From a virus (taxonomy: Duplodnaviria > Caudoviricetes), in IMG/VR virus record IMGVR_UViG_3300048855_000189, positions 1-36,829 of that record: 36,829 bases of DNA; one strand, written 5' to 3'. Shown piece by piece: positions 162 through 36,829 of the stretch; the first letter of the stretch is position 1; each line of letters begins with the position of its first letter. The position numbers and the translations under genes are program-made. The notes under the pieces were generated by a model that saw nothing but the letters and a program-made list of their open reading frames with translations, did no database searches and was not told where the DNA came from.

Positions 162-237
162 GGGCCTGTAGCTCAATGGTTAGAGCTGGCCGCTCATAAC
201 GGCTAGGTTGGGGGTTCGAGTCCCTCCGGGCCCACCA
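162..237 (+). tRNA. tRNA with CAT anticodon, most likely tRNA-Ile2 (lysidine-modified); prophage integration site
   Basis: GGGCCTG/CGGGCCC acceptor stem, D arm AGCTCAATGGTTAGAGC, anticodon arm GGCCG-CTCATAA-CGGCT, GTTCGAGTC T loop, encoded CCA; 76 nt. G1:C72 pairing excludes fMet; overall resemblance to ileX-type tRNAs favours Ile2 over elongator Met. Confidence 0.93.
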
Positions 238-396: not shown

Positions 397-1686
397 ATGC
401 TGACCGATGCGCAGGCCCGCAAAGCCAAAGCTACCGAGAAGGATTACAAGCTCGCCGATTCGGGCGGGCTGTACCTGTTCGTCACCACGAAGGGCTTCAA
501 GTCCTGGCGGTTCAAATACAGGTTCGCCGAGAAGGAAAAGCGGCTGACCTTTGGCCCCTACCCCGAGGTCACGCTGGTGGAGGCCCGCGATAAGCGCGAT
601 GCCGCCCGGCGGCTGATCCGCGACCACATCGACCCCGCCGTCGAGCGCCACAAGAGCAAGGCGGCGAGCGCCGCCAGCGCGGAGACGACGTTCGAGAAGG
701 TGGCGCGGGCATGGCACGAAGCCCAGACGCCGCGCTGGTCGCCGGACTATGCCAAGCTGGTGCTGCGCGCCCTTGAGCGCGACGTGCTGCCGCTCTTCGG
801 ACGGATGCCGCTGAAGGACATCGACGCGCCGCTGGTCCTGTCCACGCTGCGCAAGATCGAGGCGCGCGGCGCGATCGAGACGGCCAAGCGGATCCGCCAG
901 CACGTGTCGGCCGTGTTCGTCTACGGGATCTCCGAAGGCATCGCGATCGCCGATCCCGCCGCGCTGGTCGGCAAGGCGCTGAAGCCGATCGCGAAGAAGG
1001 GCAAGCAGCCCGCGATCACCGATCTCGCGAAGGCGCGGCAGTTGCTGAAGGATGTCGAGGCGTCCACGGCCGGACCCGGCACCAAGCTGGCGTCACGCCT
1101 ACTCGCGCTGACCGCGGCGCGGCCGGGCATCGTGCGCGCGGCGCGCTGGGCCGAGTTCGAAGGTATCGACTGGGCGAGCCCCGATGCCCCCGCGCCGGGG
1201 GCACTCTGGCGGATCCCGGCCGACCGCATGAAGCTCGAGCTGGACCGCAAGGGCGAGGAGGCTTTCGAGCATGTCATCCCGCTGCCGCCGCAGGCAGTGG
1301 AGGTGCTGCGCGCGAACCGCCGGCTGACGGGACGGATCGCCCTGCTCTTCCCCAGCGTCCGCAGCACGATCCAGCCGATGAGCGAGAACACGATCGGCTA
1401 CATGTACAACAGGATCGGCTATCAGGGTCGGCACGTGCCCCACGGCTGGCGCGCGGCCTTCTCGACGATCATGAACGAGCGGGCGCGGGAGCATGGCACC
1501 GGCGACGATCGGGCGGTGATCGACCTGATGCTCGCGCACGTACCGCAGGGGCTGTCCGGGTCGGAGGCTGCCTACAACCGGGCATCGCACATGGCGCGTC
1601 GTCGTGAGATCGCGCAGGAATGGGCAGATCTGATCACCGACGGGTTGGAGCCTGCGGCTGATCTTGTCGGAGATGGCGATCGTTAG
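397..1686 (+). CDS. int: P4-like tyrosine integrase with N-terminal arm-binding domain
   Basis: MLTDAQARKAK...KLADSGGLYL...WRFKYRF...LTFGPYPEVTL arm domain; catalytic R (TAARPG), HGWR, LAH and Y (AAYNR). Confidence 0.96.
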   Translation: MLTDAQARKAKATEKDYKLADSGGLYLFVTTKGFKSWRFKYRFAEKEKRLTFGPYPEVTLVEARDKRDAARRLIRDHIDPAVERHKSKAASAASAETTFEKVARAWHEAQTPRWSPDYAKLVLRALERDVLPLFGRMPLKDIDAPLVLSTLRKIEARGAIETAKRIRQHVSAVFVYGISEGIAIADPAALVGKALKPIAKKGKQPAITDLAKARQLLKDVEASTAGPGTKLASRLLALTAARPGIVRAARWAEFEGIDWASPDAPAPGALWRIPADRMKLELDRKGEEAFEHVIPLPPQAVEVLRANRRLTGRIALLFPSVRSTIQPMSENTIGYMYNRIGYQGRHVPHGWRAAFSTIMNERAREHGTGDDRAVIDLMLAHVPQGLSGSEAAYNRASHMARRREIAQEWADLITDGLEPAADLVGDGDR

Positions 1687-14721: not shown

Positions 14722-15678
14722 ATGGCGCGCAAGGGACGGAGTACCCGGCGGATCAGCAGGGCGACGGCGCAGGCGGCGCAGGCACCCGCACCGCCCAAGA
14801 AGGACGACGACAAGCTGGTCGGGCCGACGCCCGAGCAGGAGCAGCGCGGCAAGTTCGAGAAGAAGGCGCACACCAGCGAGATGGGGCAGCGCGTCGGTTT
14901 CGGATACCGGCGCCTGCCGCTGTTCGAAACCATGGCGACCGACCAGCGCCACGACATCTCGCGAGACGAACTGTCCGCATTGCGGTTCTACCGGACCGCG
15001 CACGACCGCAGCGACAGGTCGGCGACCCGCTCCTGCCTGGCGGTCGGCGCGGGTGGTGGCCAGCGCGGGAGCAGCGAAGCCACGGTGATGTCCGACGTGC
15101 CGTCGATCGTGGCGGCTCGCCAAAAGGTCCGCCTTTGCGAGCAGGCGCTGGGCAGCACCCTTGCGACGATCCGGGCGGTGGTTCTGGACGATCGATCGTT
15201 CAGCGACATCGCCATGGAGCGGTACGGCACCCGGAAGCGGGAGGGCACCATTCGGCAGGTGCCCACGATGTACCGGGGGAAGCCGCTGGTGATCGACGGC
15301 AAGCCGATCACGCGGACGGTCTACAGCGAGAAGATCCAACCCCGAAGCGGGCGCCACCGCGAGATCGTCCGGCGGGAGTTCCTGCTGGGCCTGAAGCTGC
15401 TCGCCGATCGCGTCCGGTCGCTGGTGTCAACGGCGGGCGATGAGGAGGTATGGATCCAGCCGGGAAGCGCCGGGGCGCGCATAGAGCGCGGCGCATGCGC
15501 GCCGAACGGCCTGTACCGCATGTGGGGCAAGAGCGGCGCGGTGGATGCCGTGATGCGGGATCTGCGGACCGAGCATGGTGACGAGTTGGCGTTCGCCACC
15601 CCCGAAGCAGCCAAGGCCGCGCTTGAGGCCGCCGGCACGAACCTGTCCCGCCTGGGTGAGGAGGAATTGAAGGTATGA
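14722..15678 (+). CDS. Probable late transcription regulator (Q position; DUF6456-like)
   Basis: Located at the end of the replication operon; AARQKV..CEQALG..LATIRAVVLDDRSFSDIA HTH-like block; GGGAG RBS. Confidence 0.6.
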   Translation: MARKGRSTRRISRATAQAAQAPAPPKKDDDKLVGPTPEQEQRGKFEKKAHTSEMGQRVGFGYRRLPLFETMATDQRHDISRDELSALRFYRTAHDRSDRSATRSCLAVGAGGGQRGSSEATVMSDVPSIVAARQKVRLCEQALGSTLATIRAVVLDDRSFSDIAMERYGTRKREGTIRQVPTMYRGKPLVIDGKPITRTVYSEKIQPRSGRHREIVRREFLLGLKLLADRVRSLVSTAGDEEVWIQPGSAGARIERGACAPNGLYRMWGKSGAVDAVMRDLRTEHGDELAFATPEAAKAALEAAGTNLSRLGEEELKV

Positions 15679-16229
15679 GCGAGCCGGAGCTTCTGCGGCT
15701 GGCGGAGAACCCGACCATCGCCACCATCGAACGGATGATGGACATTCGCGGCATCGAGTGGCGGGCCGATTTCGAGGCCACGTGCGACGCCGCGTCCATC
15801 GCCCTGTTCGGGATCACGCGCGCCGACACGATCCGGCCGGAGCCGCACCCGGACCAGTTCGGCGGGAACCGCGGGCTGGCGCGGTATCACTTCGGCGGCA
15901 AGGATCTGGCCGACTATTCCGCCGTGATGGAGGCTTGGTTCCAGTGGGAGGCGGACACCGCCGTGCCCACGAGGGCCAAGGATGACGAGCTGGACGTGTT
16001 CGAGTTCTGGGAGGTGCTCGGCATCGACGTCATGTCCGATGATAGCCCGGTGCTGCGCTGCCTCCACTGCTTCGAGCGCCAGATGTTCATCGCCCTCAAG
16101 GGCCTCATGCCCGAAGCTAAGCTGACGTGGGACGGATCGGGATCGCGGGCGGCGCAGGACGCGGAGAGCTGGGGCGCGTCGCTCGCCGCCGAGGCGGCGA
16201 ACTTCAGGTCGCGGCGGAACGTCCGCTAA
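15675..16229 (+). CDS. Hypothetical protein
   Basis: ATGA-coupled, acidic, 184 aa; its stop codon lies inside the left palindromic site. Confidence 0.7.
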   Translation: MSEPELLRLAENPTIATIERMMDIRGIEWRADFEATCDAASIALFGITRADTIRPEPHPDQFGGNRGLARYHFGGKDLADYSAVMEAWFQWEADTAVPTRAKDDELDVFEFWEVLGIDVMSDDSPVLRCLHCFERQMFIALKGLMPEAKLTWDGSGSRAAQDAESWGASLAAEAANFRSRRNVR

Positions 16230-16247
16230 CGCCCAGTTGCGGACATT
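16218..16247. repeat. 30-bp imperfect palindrome, left flank of the Imm53 gene
   Basis: AACGTCCGCTAACGCCCAGTTGCGGACATT; 22/30 identical to 16593-16622 (manual count). Confidence 0.75.
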
Positions 16248-16271
16248 AGCCGGTTCGCCGATAACTGCGTT

Positions 16272-16604
16272 ATGAGCGACGACAATCTGAGCTGGCTGGC
16301 CTCTTGGTATCTCGCCGAATGTAATGAGGACTGGGAGCACTCCTACGGCGTTAAGATTGACACGTTAGATAACCCCGGCTGGACGCTCGTCATCGATCTG
16401 AGGGAGACAAGTCTTGAGGGGCACCCGTTCGAGAAGTTGTCCGTAGGTGATCCCGCCAGCGATCTGAGCGAATGGAGGCGCTTAGGTAGTTGGTGGGTTG
16501 CCGAAGTCAGAGGTGGCAAGTTCGAAGCGTCGTGCGGACCTCTCGATCTTAGCGACGTGATCGGCGTGTTTCGGTCATGGGCTGAACTGGCGAACGGCAG
16601 CTAA
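16272..16604 (+). CDS. Immunity protein 53 (Imm53) family
   Basis: LSWLASWYLAECNEDWEHSYGVKIDTLDNPGWTLVIDL...CGPLDL is the Imm53 signature; lower-GC codon usage than neighbours. Confidence 0.9.
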   Translation: MSDDNLSWLASWYLAECNEDWEHSYGVKIDTLDNPGWTLVIDLRETSLEGHPFEKLSVGDPASDLSEWRRLGSWWVAEVRGGKFEASCGPLDLSDVIGVFRSWAELANGS

Positions 16605-16622
16605 CCACCAATGTCGGACGTT
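16593..16622. repeat. 30-bp imperfect palindrome, right flank of the Imm53 gene
   Basis: AACGGCAGCTAACCACCAATGTCGGACGTT; contains the Imm53 TAA at the same offset as the stop in the left site. Confidence 0.75.
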
Positions 16623-16632
16623 GAGACTGCCC

Positions 16633-16714
16633 TTGCGCGGGGGCAACGCATGTGCCAAAGTAATCACCGTCGCTCATTGCGCCTCGAAGCCCTCCCTAGC
16701 CGGTGGGGCTTTCG
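16633..16714 (+). promoter_or_regulatory. Candidate late promoter and downstream hairpin (pR'/tR'-like)
   Basis: TTGCGC-N17-CAAAGT, then stem GAAGCCCT...GGGGCTTTC ahead of the HNH RBS. Confidence 0.35.
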
Positions 16715-16731
16715 CATATCTGGAGTTCGGG

Positions 16732-17091
16732 ATGGGTCGTCTTTCAACGGCGCCGTCCCTCTTGGGCAAGCCGCCCCCTACCCTGTCGTCGCTCCCTGTT
16801 GATCCTGCTGGCGTCGAGCGCCAACGCAACGCCTTCAACCCACTGCGTGCCCTATACCGCACCGCCCGCTGGGCGCGCCTGCGCTGGGCCACGCTGACCC
16901 GGGATCGCTTCACGTGCCAGATGTGCGGCCGCCTGGTGGGCGACACGTCCAAGCTGGTCGCCGATCACCGTCGCCCGCATCGCGGCGACCTCGCCCTGTT
17001 CTGGGATCCCGAGAACCTGTGGACGCTCTGCGCGTCCCCCTGCCACTCGAAGCACAAGCAGCGGATGGAGCAGGCGCCGGAGATGCGGTGA
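16732..17091 (+). CDS. HNH endonuclease (terminase-associated, HK97 gp74-like)
   Basis: RDRFTCQMCG...VADHRRPHRGDLALFWDPENLWTLCASPCHSKHKQ; start after GGAG. Confidence 0.9.
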   Translation: MGRLSTAPSLLGKPPPTLSSLPVDPAGVERQRNAFNPLRALYRTARWARLRWATLTRDRFTCQMCGRLVGDTSKLVADHRRPHRGDLALFWDPENLWTLCASPCHSKHKQRMEQAPEMR

Positions 17092-17237: not shown

Positions 17238-17735
17238 ATGACGACTCCCAACTACGCAAGCGCAGATCCGAAGGTGTTGGAAGAGATCATCCGAGAGGCT
17301 GAGTCGCTTCTTGCCGGTCAGCTTACGGCGGCCACCGCGGCTGATCAACGCGCCCTTACCTTCGCCGGCCTGCTGGTGGCATCGGTTGCTGCCTTCCTAA
17401 GCTTCTCCGGCACCGCGAAACTCGCGACGCAGCCATCTCTTCTCGTCAGCGGAACGCTCTTAGCGGCCGCGGCTATCATCGCGTTCTGGAGCGCCGCTCC
17501 GGGCTCTTGGGACTACACGGGCAACATGCCAAGCGAGTGGAAGCACGACATCGATGGACGGCGAGCGCTGGGGTCTTCCATGGCTGAGATGGCCGAGCAC
17601 TACGATGCTGCGATAGCGCGGAATTACAGGCGCATGCGCCGCGCTGCCATCGCGATCCGCACGAGCATGGCGGCCGCGGGCCTCGCGATGATCGTCGCCA
17701 TCCTGACCCTGTGGGCGCGCTACCTGGCCGCGTAG
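17238..17735 (+). CDS. Accessory 3-TM membrane protein (moron)
   Basis: ADQRA followed by two hydrophobic helices, a soluble loop and a C-terminal helix; inserted between HNH and terS. Confidence 0.75.
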   Translation: MTTPNYASADPKVLEEIIREAESLLAGQLTAATAADQRALTFAGLLVASVAAFLSFSGTAKLATQPSLLVSGTLLAAAAIIAFWSAAPGSWDYTGNMPSEWKHDIDGRRALGSSMAEMAEHYDAAIARNYRRMRRAAIAIRTSMAAAGLAMIVAILTLWARYLAA

Positions 17736-28162: not shown

Positions 28163-31100
28163 ATGGGCACCAAGATCGCCTCTCTCGAAATCGAACTTGC
28201 CATGGCCACCGGCGGGGCCATTGCCGATGTGAACCGCTTCGGCGGCGTCGTGGACAAGGTGAGCGCCGAGGCGATCCGCGAACTCGATCGCATCGACACC
28301 GCGATGAAGAACGTCGGCGGCCTTGATGCTGCCACCGCCAGTATGGTCCGCATGGCAGGCGCATCCGCCAAGACGGCTGTGGAGACTGCCCGCGAGCTGG
28401 CGCGGATCGAGCGCGCGGGCGAATCCATGGCCACTGGGCTTGAGCGGCAGCTATCCGTATTCGGCAAGACGGCGGAGGAGGTGCGCGCGCTAAAGGCCGA
28501 GACGGCCGCCTATGCCGCGAGCATCGCCAACATGCCTGAGCTGGCCGCTCGCATTCGCGAAACGGAGCAGGCCCTGGAGCGTGAGGAGCGCGCCGTCCGC
28601 CAAGCGGCAAGCGCCTATGAGATGTTCGAGGCGCGCGCCCGACAGGCGATGCAGGTCTATCAGAGCCAGCAGGCCGTCGAAGCAGCCGCCGCGAAGGAGC
28701 GCGAGGCGGTCGCCGTGCGCAATGCGGGCGTCGCCTATCAGATGTTCGAAGCCCGCGTGCGTGCCGGCGCAGAGGCCATGCGGGAGCAGGAAGCGGCGGC
28801 CGTGCGCGACGCGGCGGCTGTGGCGCGGCTTCGGGAACTGCTGGATCCGGCGGCCGCAGCTCAGGATCGGCTCAACCGTGAGATCGAGGAAGCCCGCCGC
28901 GTGATGATCGCGGCCGGCGCGAGCGCAGAGGAACTGGCGCGGGCCGAAGCCCTACTGACCCAGCGCTCGATCGGCGTCGTCGGTTCAACCGGCAACATGA
29001 AGATCGGCATGCAGCAGATGTCGTTCCAGCTGAACGACATTGCCACCATGTGGGCGATGCAGGCTCGGCCGATGCAGATCTTCGCCAGCCAAGCGGGGCA
29101 GGTCATCCAGTCCATGCAGCTGATGGCCGGCGAGTCGAAGGGCCTGCTCGGTCTACTCGGCGGCCAGTGGGGCATGCTCATCACCACCGCCGCCGTGGTT
29201 CTCGTTCCCCTGATCAGCAACATGATCAAGCTCGGCGACAAGACGGCTGAGGCAACGGACAAGCTCAAGAAAGAGGCCGAGGAGACCGAACGGTCCCGCG
29301 TTGCCCATGATCGTTTCAAAGCCAGCGCCGAGGGCGTCGCTGCGGCCATCCGTGATGGCACCGAGGCTACGCGGCAGTCGATCGCGGCAATGAACAGTTC
29401 CGCAGAGGCTGCGAACATCGAGGCGAACGCCAACCTTCGCCACGAGATCAGCATCCGCAAGAGGACGTCGGCTAACCTTGAGGCTGCGATCGCCGAGGAG
29501 AACCTGAACAAAATCCGTGCGCAGGGCATCGGCGAGCGGGGCGACATGGGGGCGCTCGCTGCCAACGAGTCGGCCCGGCGCGTCGCGGATCTCCGCCAGC
29601 AATTGGACCAGCAGACGAAGCTGATCGGGGATGCCGAGAAGCGTGTTCAGGCTACGCGTGTCGACTTGGCCGTCGAGGCCGCTCAGCGCGCCGCCGATCC
29701 CATGGAGCGGATCAAGCACCTGTACGACGAACACGCCGAGGCCGCGAAGCGGGCGGCGCACGCGCAGGCTGCTGCCGGCAAAGAGGTCACGGCCGCCTTG
29801 ACCCGCGAACTGACCATGATCGAGCGCAACCGACAGGCCGCCATCAAGGCTGAGCAGGATCGGACCGCCGCCGCCAAGCAGACGGCCAACCAGATCGGGC
29901 GCAACATCACGCTCTCCGAGGCGCGCGGCATCGCCGAGGGCGTGGGTGGCCGGGTCACCAGCGATCACCGCACCTTGGCCGAGCAGACGGCGCTCTATGC
30001 GAAATATAGCGCGTACAAGGCCGGCACCGGCCCTTGGGCGGCGCTGGCGGCGAAGCCCGGCACTAGCAACCACGAGCTGGATCAGGCGCTCGACGTCGCG
30101 AAGACCGACGGCATGACGCTGAAGAAACTGGTCAGCGCCTATCGTGCGGCTGGCGTGAAGCTGGTCGAGGCACTGGACGAGGGCAGCCACTTCCATATCG
30201 CCTGGGCGAAGGTCGGCGAGGCGGCGAAGCAGCCGACGGCGGAACGGACCGCTGCGGCGCGCGCGATCCGCGAGGCGGCCGAGTTCGATCTGAAAATGGC
30301 AGCCGAGCGGCTGACCAATATGGGCCAGCTGCACGCCGAAGTCGTGAAGCTGATGGAAGACGCCGCAAAGCCGTTTGACCTTCGTGGGCTTGATCGAGCG
30401 ATGGATCGCATCGGCGACGCCAACGCCAAAGACCTCGATAAGAACGGCCCGCTTGCCCAGGTGGAGCAGGCGAGCGCCATCGGGGCAGCTGTCGAGAACG
30501 CCATGTCTGGCGGGTTTCGTGACGTAACCCGGTCCATCCTCGGCATGCAGGACGTCGTGGGCCTGGCATTTGGCCCCGCCAGCCCCTTGGTCCGGACGCT
30601 GGGCGATCTGGCCAGCGGTGCGGGGATCGGATCGTCCGTGGCGGGCGCAATGGGTGGCTCGAAGGTGCTGGGCGCTCTGGGCGGCGCGATCGGTGGCGAG
30701 GTCGGCAAGCAATTCCTGACGACCGGGCTGACCAGCATATCATCGCAGTTGGGCGGCATGGCCGGTCCGCTCGGCAGCATCGCCGGAGGCGTGATCGCCA
30801 GCTTCGCCGGCAGCTTGCTGACGTCCACGAAGAAGGCGGCCACCACTATCGGCGCGATCGGCGATCAGCTGGGCGTGATCGAAACCGTCGGCAACAGCGC
30901 CAAGCGCGAGAAGGCCACCGCCGCCGCGGCGAACGACCTGCTTTCGTCCCTCGGGGATCTCGCCACCCAGCTCGGCGGCGAACTCGGCTCTGGCGGTCGC
31001 GTGTCGATCGGCATCCGCGACAAGAATTACCGCGTGGATCCGACCGGCGGCGGCGCCACGAAGGTGAAGAAAGGCGCCATCGACTTCGGCGAGGATCAGC

Positions 31101-32161
31101 AGGCGGCGATCGAATACGCCCTGCGCGACCTGATCGCCGATGGTGCCATCACCGGGCTGCGTGCTGCCACGTCCCGGCTGCTGAACAGCGGGACTGACCT
31201 GGAGCGCCAGGTGCAGAAGGCGATGGATTTCGAGGGCGTGTTCTCGGCGCTCAAGCAGGCGACCGACCCGATGGGCTATGCCGTCGAGCAGCTCGACAAG
31301 CAGTTCTCGAGCCTGCGCGCGACATTCCGGGAAGCGGGTGCCTCGATCGAGGAAACCACCCAGCTGGAACAGCTGTACCAGATCCGCCGCGACGCCATCG
31401 CCAAGCAGGACGAGGATCGGATTGCCGATCGCCGCCGGCTGGAGGCGCGGCTGCTGGAAGCGCAGGGCGACACGGCCGGCGCTCTCGCGATCACCCGGCA
31501 GATCGAGCTGGCCAGCACGGACGCGAGCCTGCGCACGTTGCAGCAGCAGATCTATGCGGCGGAGGATGGCCAGGAAGCCGTGAAGGCGGCCGAGCAACTG
31601 CGCGATGCTTGGAAGTCCGTGGGCGACACGATCATGGACGAGGTCCGCCGGATCCGCGGCCTGGGCGATGCCACCGGCGGTAACAGCTTCGCTACCTTGC
31701 TGGGCCAGTTCAACGCCGCGAACGCTGCGGCGCGCACGGGCGACATCGATGCCGCCAAGAACCTGCCCCAGCTGTCCAAGTCGCTGCTCGATGCGGCGGC
31801 GCAGGCGGCAACGAGCCGGCAGGAACTGGACCGGGTGCAGGCCCAGACAGCGGCCATGCTGGAGGCCACCTACGCGGCGATCGGAGGCGGGAGCCCCGCC
31901 GAGGCCCCGACTGCCGCCAACACCGCCGCGGCGCTGGCCAACCTGTCCGCCGTGCAGGCGGCAACCGGCAGCGCGGCGGCGAGCAACGACATGGTGAGCG
32001 AGCTGCGTGCGCTGCGTGAGGAGATGGCCGGTATGCGGACCGAGAACAAGGCAGGCCACGCGGCCACTGCCGGCAACACCGGCAGCATCGATCGACGGCT
32101 TGCGGCGGTGACCGAGGCAAGCAGCGGTGAGGCGATCACCGTCGCGTCGGTGGCGGCATGA
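28163..32161 (+). CDS. Tape measure protein with embedded M15-type peptidase domain
   Basis: 1332 aa, Ala-rich helical; lambda-type TMP motif QQMSFQLNDIATM...PMQIFASQAGQ; Gly-rich hydrophobic region; TSDHRT..EQ..LY...AAKPGTSNHE..ALDV...HFHIAW. Confidence 0.95.
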   Translation: MGTKIASLEIELAMATGGAIADVNRFGGVVDKVSAEAIRELDRIDTAMKNVGGLDAATASMVRMAGASAKTAVETARELARIERAGESMATGLERQLSVFGKTAEEVRALKAETAAYAASIANMPELAARIRETEQALEREERAVRQAASAYEMFEARARQAMQVYQSQQAVEAAAAKEREAVAVRNAGVAYQMFEARVRAGAEAMREQEAAAVRDAAAVARLRELLDPAAAAQDRLNREIEEARRVMIAAGASAEELARAEALLTQRSIGVVGSTGNMKIGMQQMSFQLNDIATMWAMQARPMQIFASQAGQVIQSMQLMAGESKGLLGLLGGQWGMLITTAAVVLVPLISNMIKLGDKTAEATDKLKKEAEETERSRVAHDRFKASAEGVAAAIRDGTEATRQSIAAMNSSAEAANIEANANLRHEISIRKRTSANLEAAIAEENLNKIRAQGIGERGDMGALAANESARRVADLRQQLDQQTKLIGDAEKRVQATRVDLAVEAAQRAADPMERIKHLYDEHAEAAKRAAHAQAAAGKEVTAALTRELTMIERNRQAAIKAEQDRTAAAKQTANQIGRNITLSEARGIAEGVGGRVTSDHRTLAEQTALYAKYSAYKAGTGPWAALAAKPGTSNHELDQALDVAKTDGMTLKKLVSAYRAAGVKLVEALDEGSHFHIAWAKVGEAAKQPTAERTAAARAIREAAEFDLKMAAERLTNMGQLHAEVVKLMEDAAKPFDLRGLDRAMDRIGDANAKDLDKNGPLAQVEQASAIGAAVENAMSGGFRDVTRSILGMQDVVGLAFGPASPLVRTLGDLASGAGIGSSVAGAMGGSKVLGALGGAIGGEVGKQFLTTGLTSISSQLGGMAGPLGSIAGGVIASFAGSLLTSTKKAATTIGAIGDQLGVIETVGNSAKREKATAAAANDLLSSLGDLATQLGGELGSGGRVSIGIRDKNYRVDPTGGGATKVKKGAIDFGEDQQAAIEYALRDLIADGAITGLRAATSRLLNSGTDLERQVQKAMDFEGVFSALKQATDPMGYAVEQLDKQFSSLRATFREAGASIEETTQLEQLYQIRRDAIAKQDEDRIADRRRLEARLLEAQGDTAGALAITRQIELASTDASLRTLQQQIYAAEDGQEAVKAAEQLRDAWKSVGDTIMDEVRRIRGLGDATGGNSFATLLGQFNAANAAARTGDIDAAKNLPQLSKSLLDAAAQAATSRQELDRVQAQTAAMLEATYAAIGGGSPAEAPTAANTAAALANLSAVQAATGSAAASNDMVSELRALREEMAGMRTENKAGHAATAGNTGSIDRRLAAVTEASSGEAITVASVAA

Positions 32162-35169: not shown

Positions 35170-35711
35170 AGTGGTGGGCGATGGGGCCGGCCGGTGAGCC
35201 GGTGCGGCAGTATATCGACAGCGATCTTCGGCCACTCGGCCCGAACGGATGGGCGACGGTCCTGATTGACGGGCGTCCCGAGACGAACCGCTGGCGGATC
35301 GCCGCCGATGGTGCGGCGATCGAGCCGCTTCCGGTGGACGTGTCCGAGCTGCGCGCGCTGCGGTGGGAGGCGGCGAAGGCTTACCGCGACGAGGTCATTG
35401 CGAGCGGCTGCATGGGGCCAAACGGCCGCGTAGACGCCGACGACAAGAGCCTCGTCCGAATCCTCGGCGCGATCAAGCTGCTGGAGGAACTCGCGGGCAC
35501 CGACCCGGCGCCGGCGATCAACTGGACCATGCAGGACAACAGTGAGGTTCCCCACGACCTTGCCGACATGCGGCAGATGGGGATCGCGGTCGGCCTGTTC
35601 ATCGACGCCTGCCAGTCCAACGGCAACGCCATTCGTCGCGCGATCAATGCGGCCGACGATCCCGCCAACATCGACATCACCGCCGGCTACCCGGCCCAGG
35701 AGGCAGCATAA
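35166..35711 (+). CDS. DUF4376-like tail-fibre-associated protein
   Basis: KAYRDE...VDADDKSLVRI...INWTMQDNS.V; ATGA overlap. Confidence 0.75.
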   Translation: MKWWAMGPAGEPVRQYIDSDLRPLGPNGWATVLIDGRPETNRWRIAADGAAIEPLPVDVSELRALRWEAAKAYRDEVIASGCMGPNGRVDADDKSLVRILGAIKLLEELAGTDPAPAINWTMQDNSEVPHDLADMRQMGIAVGLFIDACQSNGNAIRRAINAADDPANIDITAGYPAQEAA

Positions 35712-36829
35712 TGGCTTGGTACAATAACGGCACCGTCTCGGTCACGAACGGCTCGAACGTCGTCAACGCCGCGGGCGCGCAGTGGGTGATCAACGGCATC
35801 CAGGCTGGGTGGGGCCTCATCGTTGGCGATCTGGCACCGCGGGAGATCCTGTCGGTCAACTCCGACAATTCGCTCACGCTGCGCTCGCCGTGGACCGGCC
35901 CAACCCTTTCTGGTCAGCCCTACGCCATCATGCCTACCAGCAGCCTGGCGGGCGATCTGGCTGTCGGGGTCGGCAACCTGATCGCTGGTTTCGTCGCGGT
36001 GCGCGATGGTCCGGGCGCCGGCAAGTTTCCGGACGGCACTGGCGTCGCGCCCAGCGTGACCTTCGCGAACGACCAGGACACTGGCATCTACCGCGCCGAC
36101 AATAACATCCTCGGCCTCACAGCTGGCGGTGCGGCCAGTTTCGTCTCCCCGCAGGGGATCAGCTTCAACGCAGCCGATGGCAAGGGTGCGGGCTTCCTGA
36201 TCGCGACAGAGCGCTTTTTCCCCGCTGGTGGCGTCTCGATCGCGCGGTTCGGCATCAGCTACAACCCGTACATCGGGCAGGGCTCGGTCGGGATGTCCGC
36301 GTTCGGTGCCCTGCATTTCTTCACGAACGACGCCTTGCGCTGGTCGATCGTCCAGGCCGGGCATCTCGCGCCCGCCGTGGACAACACGATGGCGGTCGGT
36401 GGGATCAACAACCGTGTCTCGGTGATCTACGCCGCCTCGGGCACGATCAACACGTCGGATGAGCGGGAGAAGGAATGGCGCGGTGCCCTGACGCCCGCCG
36501 AACTCGCCGCGGCGCGTGAAATCAGCAAGGAGATTGGCATCTATCGCTGGCTGGACGCGATTGCCGAGAAGGGCCAGGCGGCGCGGCTGCACTGCGGCGT
36601 GCGCGCCCAGCGGGTCATCGCCGCCCTGGAGGCGCAGGGCCTCGACCCAATGCGCTACGGCTTCATCTGTTATGACGAGTGGAAAGCGACCGTCGGTGGC
36701 AAGGACAAGGACGGGTTCGTTACCGCGCCGAGCGGGCGGGCGGGTGATCGGTACGGCATTCGCCCCGACGAGCTGCTGTTCTTCCTGCTGGCCGCGCAGG
36801 AGCAGCGCTTGGCCGCGCTGGAGGCGTGA
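35711..36829 (+). CDS. Tail fibre/spike with C-terminal S74 intramolecular chaperone
   Basis: MAWY..GTVSVTNGS N-terminus; APSVTFANDQDTGIYR; INTSDEREK...ARLHCGVRAQ...YGIRPDEL...RLAALE. Confidence 0.92.
   Translation: MAWYNNGTVSVTNGSNVVNAAGAQWVINGIQAGWGLIVGDLAPREILSVNSDNSLTLRSPWTGPTLSGQPYAIMPTSSLAGDLAVGVGNLIAGFVAVRDGPGAGKFPDGTGVAPSVTFANDQDTGIYRADNNILGLTAGGAASFVSPQGISFNAADGKGAGFLIATERFFPAGGVSIARFGISYNPYIGQGSVGMSAFGALHFFTNDALRWSIVQAGHLAPAVDNTMAVGGINNRVSVIYAASGTINTSDEREKEWRGALTPAELAAAREISKEIGIYRWLDAIAEKGQAARLHCGVRAQRVIAALEAQGLDPMRYGFICYDEWKATVGGKDKDGFVTAPSGRAGDRYGIRPDELLFFLLAAQEQRLAALEA

Follow-up and report, generated by a model that had tools for sequence, protein, structure and literature searches.

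A phage immunity gene between two 30-bp sites

The window, by which we mean the whole stretch analysed here (36,829 nt, IMG/VR record IMGVR_UViG_3300048855_000189), has the gene content of a temperate phage, with a tRNA, an integrase, a repressor, a primase–helicase, an HNH endonuclease, a terminase, and head and tail genes. The nearest prophages found reside in Sphingomonadaceae, with terminases 71–74% identical, and the best named homologues of its Imm53 protein come from Sphingomonadales, so the host is likely a sphingomonad. Imm53, predicted from its Pfam family only to guard the lysogen against a competitor's polymorphic toxin, is the only gene between two 30-bp sites (Table 1), on DNA of 57% GC compared with 66% for the window. 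No promoters or terminators were found at 16100–16800. Elsewhere in the window, a low-GC (55%) gene directly 3′ of the integrase (1716–2507, phrog_19541) and a moron-like 165-aa gene of unknown function between the HNH and terminase small-subunit genes (17238–17735) have no flanking sites; the tape measure protein (28163–32161) carries a VanY-like peptidase domain, and a tail spike with endosialidase-like and chaperone domains lies at the window end (35711–36829).

Table 1 Features of the Imm53 locus and its context, with positions in the window
Feature	Positions	Strand	Remarks
tRNA	162–234		Only Rfam match in the window
Prophage integrase with arm-binding domain	397–1686	+	Adjoins the tRNA; context, unlinked to the sites
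Upstream 184-aa gene, family unknown	15675–16229	+	Last three codons and stop come from the site 1 left arm
Site 1, flavour A	16218–16247	+	45.1 bits, A model
Site 1 left arm	16218–16228	+	
Site 1 spacer	16229–16236	+	ACGCCCAG
Site 1 right arm	16237–16247	+	
Stretch common to the window and a Sphingomonas copy (L254, G405)	16231–16622	+	80% nucleotide identity; site 1 position 14 to last base of site 2
Imm53 family cargo gene, 110 aa	16272–16604	+	PF15580, E = 1e-30; stop inside site 2
Site 2, flavour B	16593–16622	+	34.4 bits, B model
Site 2 left arm	16593–16603	+	
Site 2 spacer	16604–16611	+	ACCACCAA
Site 2 right arm	16612–16622	+	
Downstream phage HNH endonuclease gene	16732–17091	+	Right flank, outside the cassette; ORF listed from TTG at 16621, ATG at 16732

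The preliminary description of this DNA had picked out two 30-mers that share a strand, start 375 nt apart and agree at 22/30 positions, and we confirm the pair. Identity of this degree is not rare in itself, as the window contains 15 pairs that match at 22/30 positions or more and are no more than 600 nt apart, and we reject identity alone as a measure of significance. The sites do, however, match a family better than chance allows. Under models trained on genomes other than this one, the scores in Table 1 compare with maxima of 19.1 bits (A) and 14.6 bits (B) in 20 shuffled windows. The same models, run over the whole window, find no third site, and none near the prophage integrase.

As described before, the stop codons of the genes preceding the two sites lie inside them: the TAA of the upstream gene and that of Imm53 both end at site position 12. 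This arrangement, with the stop in GCTAAC, recurs in a Sphingomonas plasmid, where ynfA is flanked by a pair of these sites with the same 375-nt spacing and has its stop at that site position too, and that cassette is the first independent sign of the family beyond the window. The upstream gene belongs to a rare family: a search of 5.8 billion proteins, limited to a length range, yields 8 homologues, and there is no Pfam or PHROG match. Its homologues end 0–4 residues earlier, and at 6/6 homologue loci the gene has its own stop without a site; the idea that the family itself is cassette-borne is thus unsupported (sites at 0/6 of these loci). The left arm of site 1 falls at about the natural stop position and encodes NVR-stop, and site 2 encodes NGS-stop at the end of Imm53, a hint that a site can be added to the end of a gene, although a stop in GCTAAC is not general (6/114 A and B sites at sphingomonad loci).

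A widespread family of sites with fixed spacer flavours

The two sites belong to a widespread 30-bp family composed of two 11-bp arms around an 8-bp spacer (11 + 8 + 11), with the arm consensus AAYGTCCGCWW. An exact scan for two 9-bp arms separated by 12 free bases yields 40 viral loci, in which the free bases are conserved and asymmetric, a result that is partly circular because orientation was chosen on them. A matrix scan returns 114 sites of at least 14 bits in 352 kb, about 42 of them seeds, compared with 2 in a shuffle. Grouped around prototypes picked from the same data, 43 sphingomonad spacers are of flavour A, 35 of B and 14 of C, and 10 stay unassigned. Within these loci the sites are co-oriented and mostly frame cargo as A-cargo-B, with short B-linker-A doublets separating the cassettes. 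Adjacent co-oriented pairs (n = 77, from sphingomonad loci of which some overlap) include 32 long A-to-B, 10 short B-to-A, 5 long B-to-A, 10 long A–A and 9 long B–B intervals. Cargo lies in either direction (20 forward and 9 reverse, by longest ORF), and 26/34 cargo ORFs tested have no Pfam match.

Site-gene-site arrays, which the preliminary description had suggested looking for, do exist: one locus (L117) holds 19 sites in 20 kb and another (L033) 12 sites in 10 kb. The latter array lies in a P2-like prophage (IMGVR_UViG_3300025292_000114, L033:2465–8772), at a position typical of accessory hotspots, with the late-control D gene on one side and the repressor on the other. In one genome (G001, L066–L074), arrays are closed by the third spacer flavour, in the order A, B(n), C.

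The consensus pattern matches 46/151 Sphingomonadaceae genomes and 18/251 Alphaproteobacteria, with up to 46 copies in one; a reversed control matches 6/251, once or twice each. Enterobacterial loci have A and B spacers of their own in the same layout as sphingomonads. The arms are symmetric, and they resemble each other across the range from Sphingomonas to E. coli. Match counts for E. coli genomes include IS and core-gene matches and were dropped as site counts. A lone A-type site occurs in E. coli K-12 beside yfjW (L195:11992–12021), in a cryptic prophage region carrying rnlAB and abpAB that we take to be CP4-57. The motif recurs at gene boundaries, as anticipated, with family sites bounding cargo in phages and bacteria.

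Both window sites had been described as imperfect hairpins. Site 1 does fold (−12.5 kcal/mol as DNA), but site 2 folds poorly (−4.2) and is self-complementary at 14/30 positions. A single-strand element processed like an integron attC site by IntI, or like REP/BIME by an HUH transposase, would be consistent with the fold of site 1 (about −13 kcal/mol), with the stops inside the site at some loci and with a slight covariation of the arms (7.96 versus 7.68 paired positions of 11). Integron attC cores have the form RYYYAAC...GTTRRRY; contrary to the resemblance claimed before, a search of both strands up to 150 nt from each site finds no such pair. IntI is absent from the 47 window ORFs scanned, as first described, and the IntI model TIGR02249 exceeds its cut-off in 0/5 site-rich genomes. 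As opposed to REP/BIME with RAYT, the sites here bound exchanged cargo, and the Y1_Tnp domain (PF01797) is found in 1/5 site-rich genomes; neither site matched in an Rfam search of the window. We give the hairpin explanation almost no weight. Changes in the arms are mostly uncompensated, 315 being one-sided and 39 two-sided, of which 15 restore pairing, and this favours a site that would act by protein binding to duplex DNA.

Cassette boundaries coincide with sites

Imm53 homologues occur in 13/351 Sphingomonas genomes. The closest copy found (G405, 82% identical in amino acids) lies near recA between unrelated flanks and is followed by a linker and an A site, and its match to the window extends from the site 1 spacer to the end of site 2. 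This copy supports the earlier proposal of a mobile single-gene cassette between short palindromic recombination-type sites, and comparison of the sequences makes it very probable that the Imm53 unit is one. The right-arm core of A occurs at most 60 nt upstream of the gene at 14/18 Imm53 loci, as opposed to 4/273 control windows, with full sites often absent.

Other cassettes share this behaviour. In one genome (G089), a 356-nt cassette is present twice with only 3 bases different from A position 13 to B position 19, and the outer arms and flanks of the two copies differ. A VOC cassette is found at 5 unrelated loci and ends in or near sites, which are degenerate in two or three; a 29-bp site-like palindrome is seen just inside its B site (L044:6520–6575 and homologues). 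Related viral loci diverge within sites in the pairs L004/L031, L008/L023 and L010/L036. One locus (L196) has a hybrid B/B site, its left arm being that of the first B of L028 and its right arm that of the last B, with the intervening 2.9 kb absent. No excision joint was seen at the sites in one sequencing run containing window DNA, probably its source, for which contigs only were available and which is uninformative for rare events.

A prophage slot with exchangeable cargo

In E. coli, a slot at the right end of a prophage consists of a constant short flank and A, varying cargo, and B with a second constant short flank. Loci were picked by one flank, which leaves only the opposite breakpoint independent; it falls in the other site in most loci. 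A left-flank motif scan gave 32 viral contigs of this slot, which are related and not independent. The 31 usable contigs hold 14 cargo clusters, in agreement with the suggestion that the sites supply cargo to phages. Right arms vary with the cargo, and the left arm is fixed by the search pattern. The B flank is reached 754–4924 nt on in 20 contigs, and 11 end before it or lack it in the available sequence. Internal B-linker-A doublets are present in 5 contigs. In three contigs the last cassette is a common one of 580 nt, whereas the first cassettes differ or are extended, a pattern that entry of new units at the first A would produce.

The enterobacterial slot flanks are 75–99% identical over 100–200 nt. 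The repeats and about 150 nt of conserved flank could in principle provide the linker homology on which RecA or a phage Red-type system would exchange DNA, with no dedicated enzyme at all, but breakpoints fall inside the 30-bp sites, copies with unrelated flanks start in the spacer, and both spacer flavour and orientation are conserved, which makes exchange by homology very improbable.

The preliminary description explained the pair differently, by a 375-bp cassette inserted at a short palindromic target that can be reconstituted empty. In the terms used here, a 375-bp circle would enter one palindromic target by a single crossover, and A-by-B recombination, tolerant of mismatched overlaps, would restore the empty site. 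Inner arms do travel with the cargo while outer arms differ between copies, and lone A-gene-B units are scattered in one genome (G089), as this scheme would have it. The reconstituted target itself did not appear. A single A-left/B-right site is present in 0/32 slot contigs, where L220 is a slot deletion ending outside B; any site is present at 0/14 loci orthologous to the G405 Imm53 locus; and sites near the HNH gene occur in 0/5 related prophages. The perfect 8-bp arms obtained by joining the two outer arms, read as the sign of an empty target, reflect that both are near consensus, and the spacers represent two distinct conserved flavours. The order is strongly A then B (32 versus 5), and the sole hybrid seen is B/B. 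We therefore regard the single-target scheme as improbable. With no A-left/B-right empty site found, a 375-bp A-by-B circle is unlikely, and a like-with-like crossover fits better. The absence of A/B empties among these loci, together with the B/B hybrid, makes exchange of A with A and B with B the probable mode, one in which we have good confidence from the comparison of loci.

Searches of viral sequences, with Imm53, the upstream protein, an alignment of the upstream gene and the small recombinase described below as queries, returned no close relatives of the window phage. A phage collection search returned HNH and terminase pieces only and no close relative, and 401 Sphingomonadaceae genomes returned distant prophages only (terminase 50–74% identical), without sites.

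A small tyrosine recombinase as candidate enzyme

The earlier proposal of a recombinase acting in trans is supported. The candidate is a tyrosine recombinase of 200–210 aa with the catalytic domain only (PF00589, E = 1.6e-21, residues 31–196 of 210). R61, K89, R161, H184 and Y193 are invariant in 7/7 aligned copies, and H158 is present in 6/7 (the R-K-H-R-H-Y set); on this alignment, the small protein is a tyrosine recombinase with catalytic residues intact. It scores 22.8 against the IntI model TIGR02249, for which the cut-off is 265. The gene is found in 39/151 Sphingomonadaceae genomes and on 325 plasmids of many genera. Half-sites lie at most 300 nt from it at 17/31 loci, as opposed to 2/87 control windows and 0/93 shuffles.

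A recombinase linked to the sites, which the preliminary description had suggested looking for, is seen at enterobacterial loci, but co-occurrence across whole genomes is not significant. At 5/5 enterobacterial loci (L031, L198 and L317–L319) the small gene is framed by sites, with B upstream and A 15 nt past the stop; two of these sites are degenerate and were read by eye. It thus takes the B-to-A linker position, not the A-to-B cargo position. Sphingomonad half-sites flanking the gene are split and oriented unlike the enterobacterial layout, and a full flanking site of at least 11 bits accompanies 0/6 non-enterobacterial plasmid copies. Among genomes, the recombinase occurs in 14/46 site-positive and 25/105 site-negative members (p = 0.42) and in 4/11 site-rich ones (p = 0.48). 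An intact gene is absent from ten site-bearing genomes, one of them with 46 sites, with fragments in 2, in assemblies that may be incomplete, and of 97 loci selected by site or slot, only 4 include the recombinase gene, whole or in part.

This lack of co-occurrence leaves room for the same cassette system run by a host or other recombinase, such as XerC/XerD or a further family, with the small gene a mere passenger between sites; the site-rich genomes that lack the small gene all carry other tyrosine recombinases of about 300 aa. The linker position of the small gene, however, is not that of cargo, and the symmetry of the arms and their likeness between E. coli and Sphingomonas speak against another enzyme. 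The window sites match the XerC and XerD arms of pdif at best at 10/22 positions each (arms from Table 1 of PMC13141974). A missing trans-acting enzyme also has precedent in the available text on integrons, where many integron-type arrays lack the enzyme and half of the genomes with CALINs lack IntI (PMC4889954). We consider a different enzyme unlikely and the small tyrosine recombinase, acting transiently in trans, the best candidate, with odds somewhat better than even. The prophage integrase and other tyrosine recombinases of five genomes were set aside as partners, having sites near only 2/30 loci. One of these two encodes a 192-aa tyrosine recombinase distinct from the candidate, with a 7-site array about 500 nt away and a tRNA nearby (G003, L143:1456–2034); it might be an alternative enzyme for the sites or might simply serve its island.

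Proposed mechanism of cargo exchange

We propose, with a probability of about 0.68, that the Imm53 cassette moves when a recombinase supplied in trans, probably the tyrosine recombinase of about 200 residues, crosses A with A and B with B. One protein would bind both arms on double-stranded DNA. Strand exchange would require matching spacers, so a lone A-gene-B unit could not simply excise and would be stable. An A-gene-B-linker circle would enter a slot by A-by-A crossover to give A-new-B-linker-A-old-B, and a B-by-B crossover would then remove the old cargo, replacing it with both sites kept. New slots, probably including that of the window phage, may be founded by rare insertion at poor, non-canonical targets. 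The enzyme would act in trans from a mobile B-recombinase-A unit.

Relation to known systems and implications

Heterospecific loxP/FRT recombinase-mediated cassette exchange is an engineered tool. The family resembles it in having two symmetric arms, an asymmetric 8-bp spacer and non-matching spacers flanking the cargo, and differs in being natural, in its 11-bp arms and in a candidate enzyme without core-binding domain.

Acinetobacter dif modules are bounded by 28-bp pdif sites with distinct XerC and XerD arms, a 6-bp spacer and inverse orientation; crossover occurs within the site at identical or near-identical spacers, and single modules are replaced in two steps with spacers kept, according to the text available (PMC13141974). 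The family is similar in that short two-arm sites bound the cargo and in the two-step replacement proposed for it; the evidence for a spacer-matched crossover inside the sites is comparative and comes from the L196 hybrid, the E. coli slot loci and contigs, and the G089 pair. Unlike dif modules, its sites are 30 bp long (11 + 8 + 11), with symmetric arms, co-orientation and a few fixed spacer flavours; phages, islands and chromosomes all carry them, in Alpha- and Gammaproteobacteria at least, and the candidate enzyme is mobile and not a host Xer.

Similar to integrons and CALINs, the family forms arrays in which the cassettes are short, mostly hold one gene and have no known function; the enzyme is absent from many arrays (PMC4889954). 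New cassettes seem to enter at the first site, and the stop sometimes lies inside the site, as in integrons. The system is nonetheless not an integron by its sequence features: it lacks attC cores and IntI, has two site types per cassette and cargo in either orientation, and is present in Alphaproteobacteria, where the survey text reports no integrons in 243 genomes (PMC4889954). Gamma-Mobile-Trio islands also insert at inverted-repeat sites of about 30 bp and carry defence cargo, but, as far as the accessible preprint goes, they are large islands at a single naive site that need three GMT proteins and have island-specific sites, as opposed to two-flavour cassette arrays (bioRxiv 10.1101/2023.03.28.534373). 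In the available text of a tyrosine recombinase survey, simple enzymes consist of a core-binding and a catalytic domain and no group matches the small enzyme, a family that its supplements may list (PMC8138268). No description of these sites was found in the literature covered, which excludes subscription journals and preprint supplements. We take the family to be real and to be a variant of recombinase-driven gene cassettes that has apparently not been described.

To this the window adds a phage-borne lone cassette with comparative evidence of mobility, the logic of A and B flavours, and a case in which the empty-site model was tested directly, with a negative outcome. We lean slightly towards a broader reading, in which the family would join integrons and dif modules as a third kind of natural gene-cassette system. 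This would be an exchange with two addresses, present throughout the proteobacteria, and a minimal 200-aa tyrosine recombinase, mobile in the form B-recombinase-A, would reload the A...B slots of prophages, plasmids and islands. If true, this would explain precise cargo swapping at phage accessory and defence hotspots, would mean that sites are appended at stop codons during cassette making, and would have the system stand in for integrons in Alphaproteobacteria, a candidate answer to their reported absence there (PMC4889954). The sites provide a sequence handle for cargo mining, and genome engineering could gain a tool from so small a recombinase, whose natural site pairs would not cross-react. 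For prophage biology, the scheme offers a concrete, testable mechanism for accessory gene swaps at hotspots, including an E. coli slot with many cargos.
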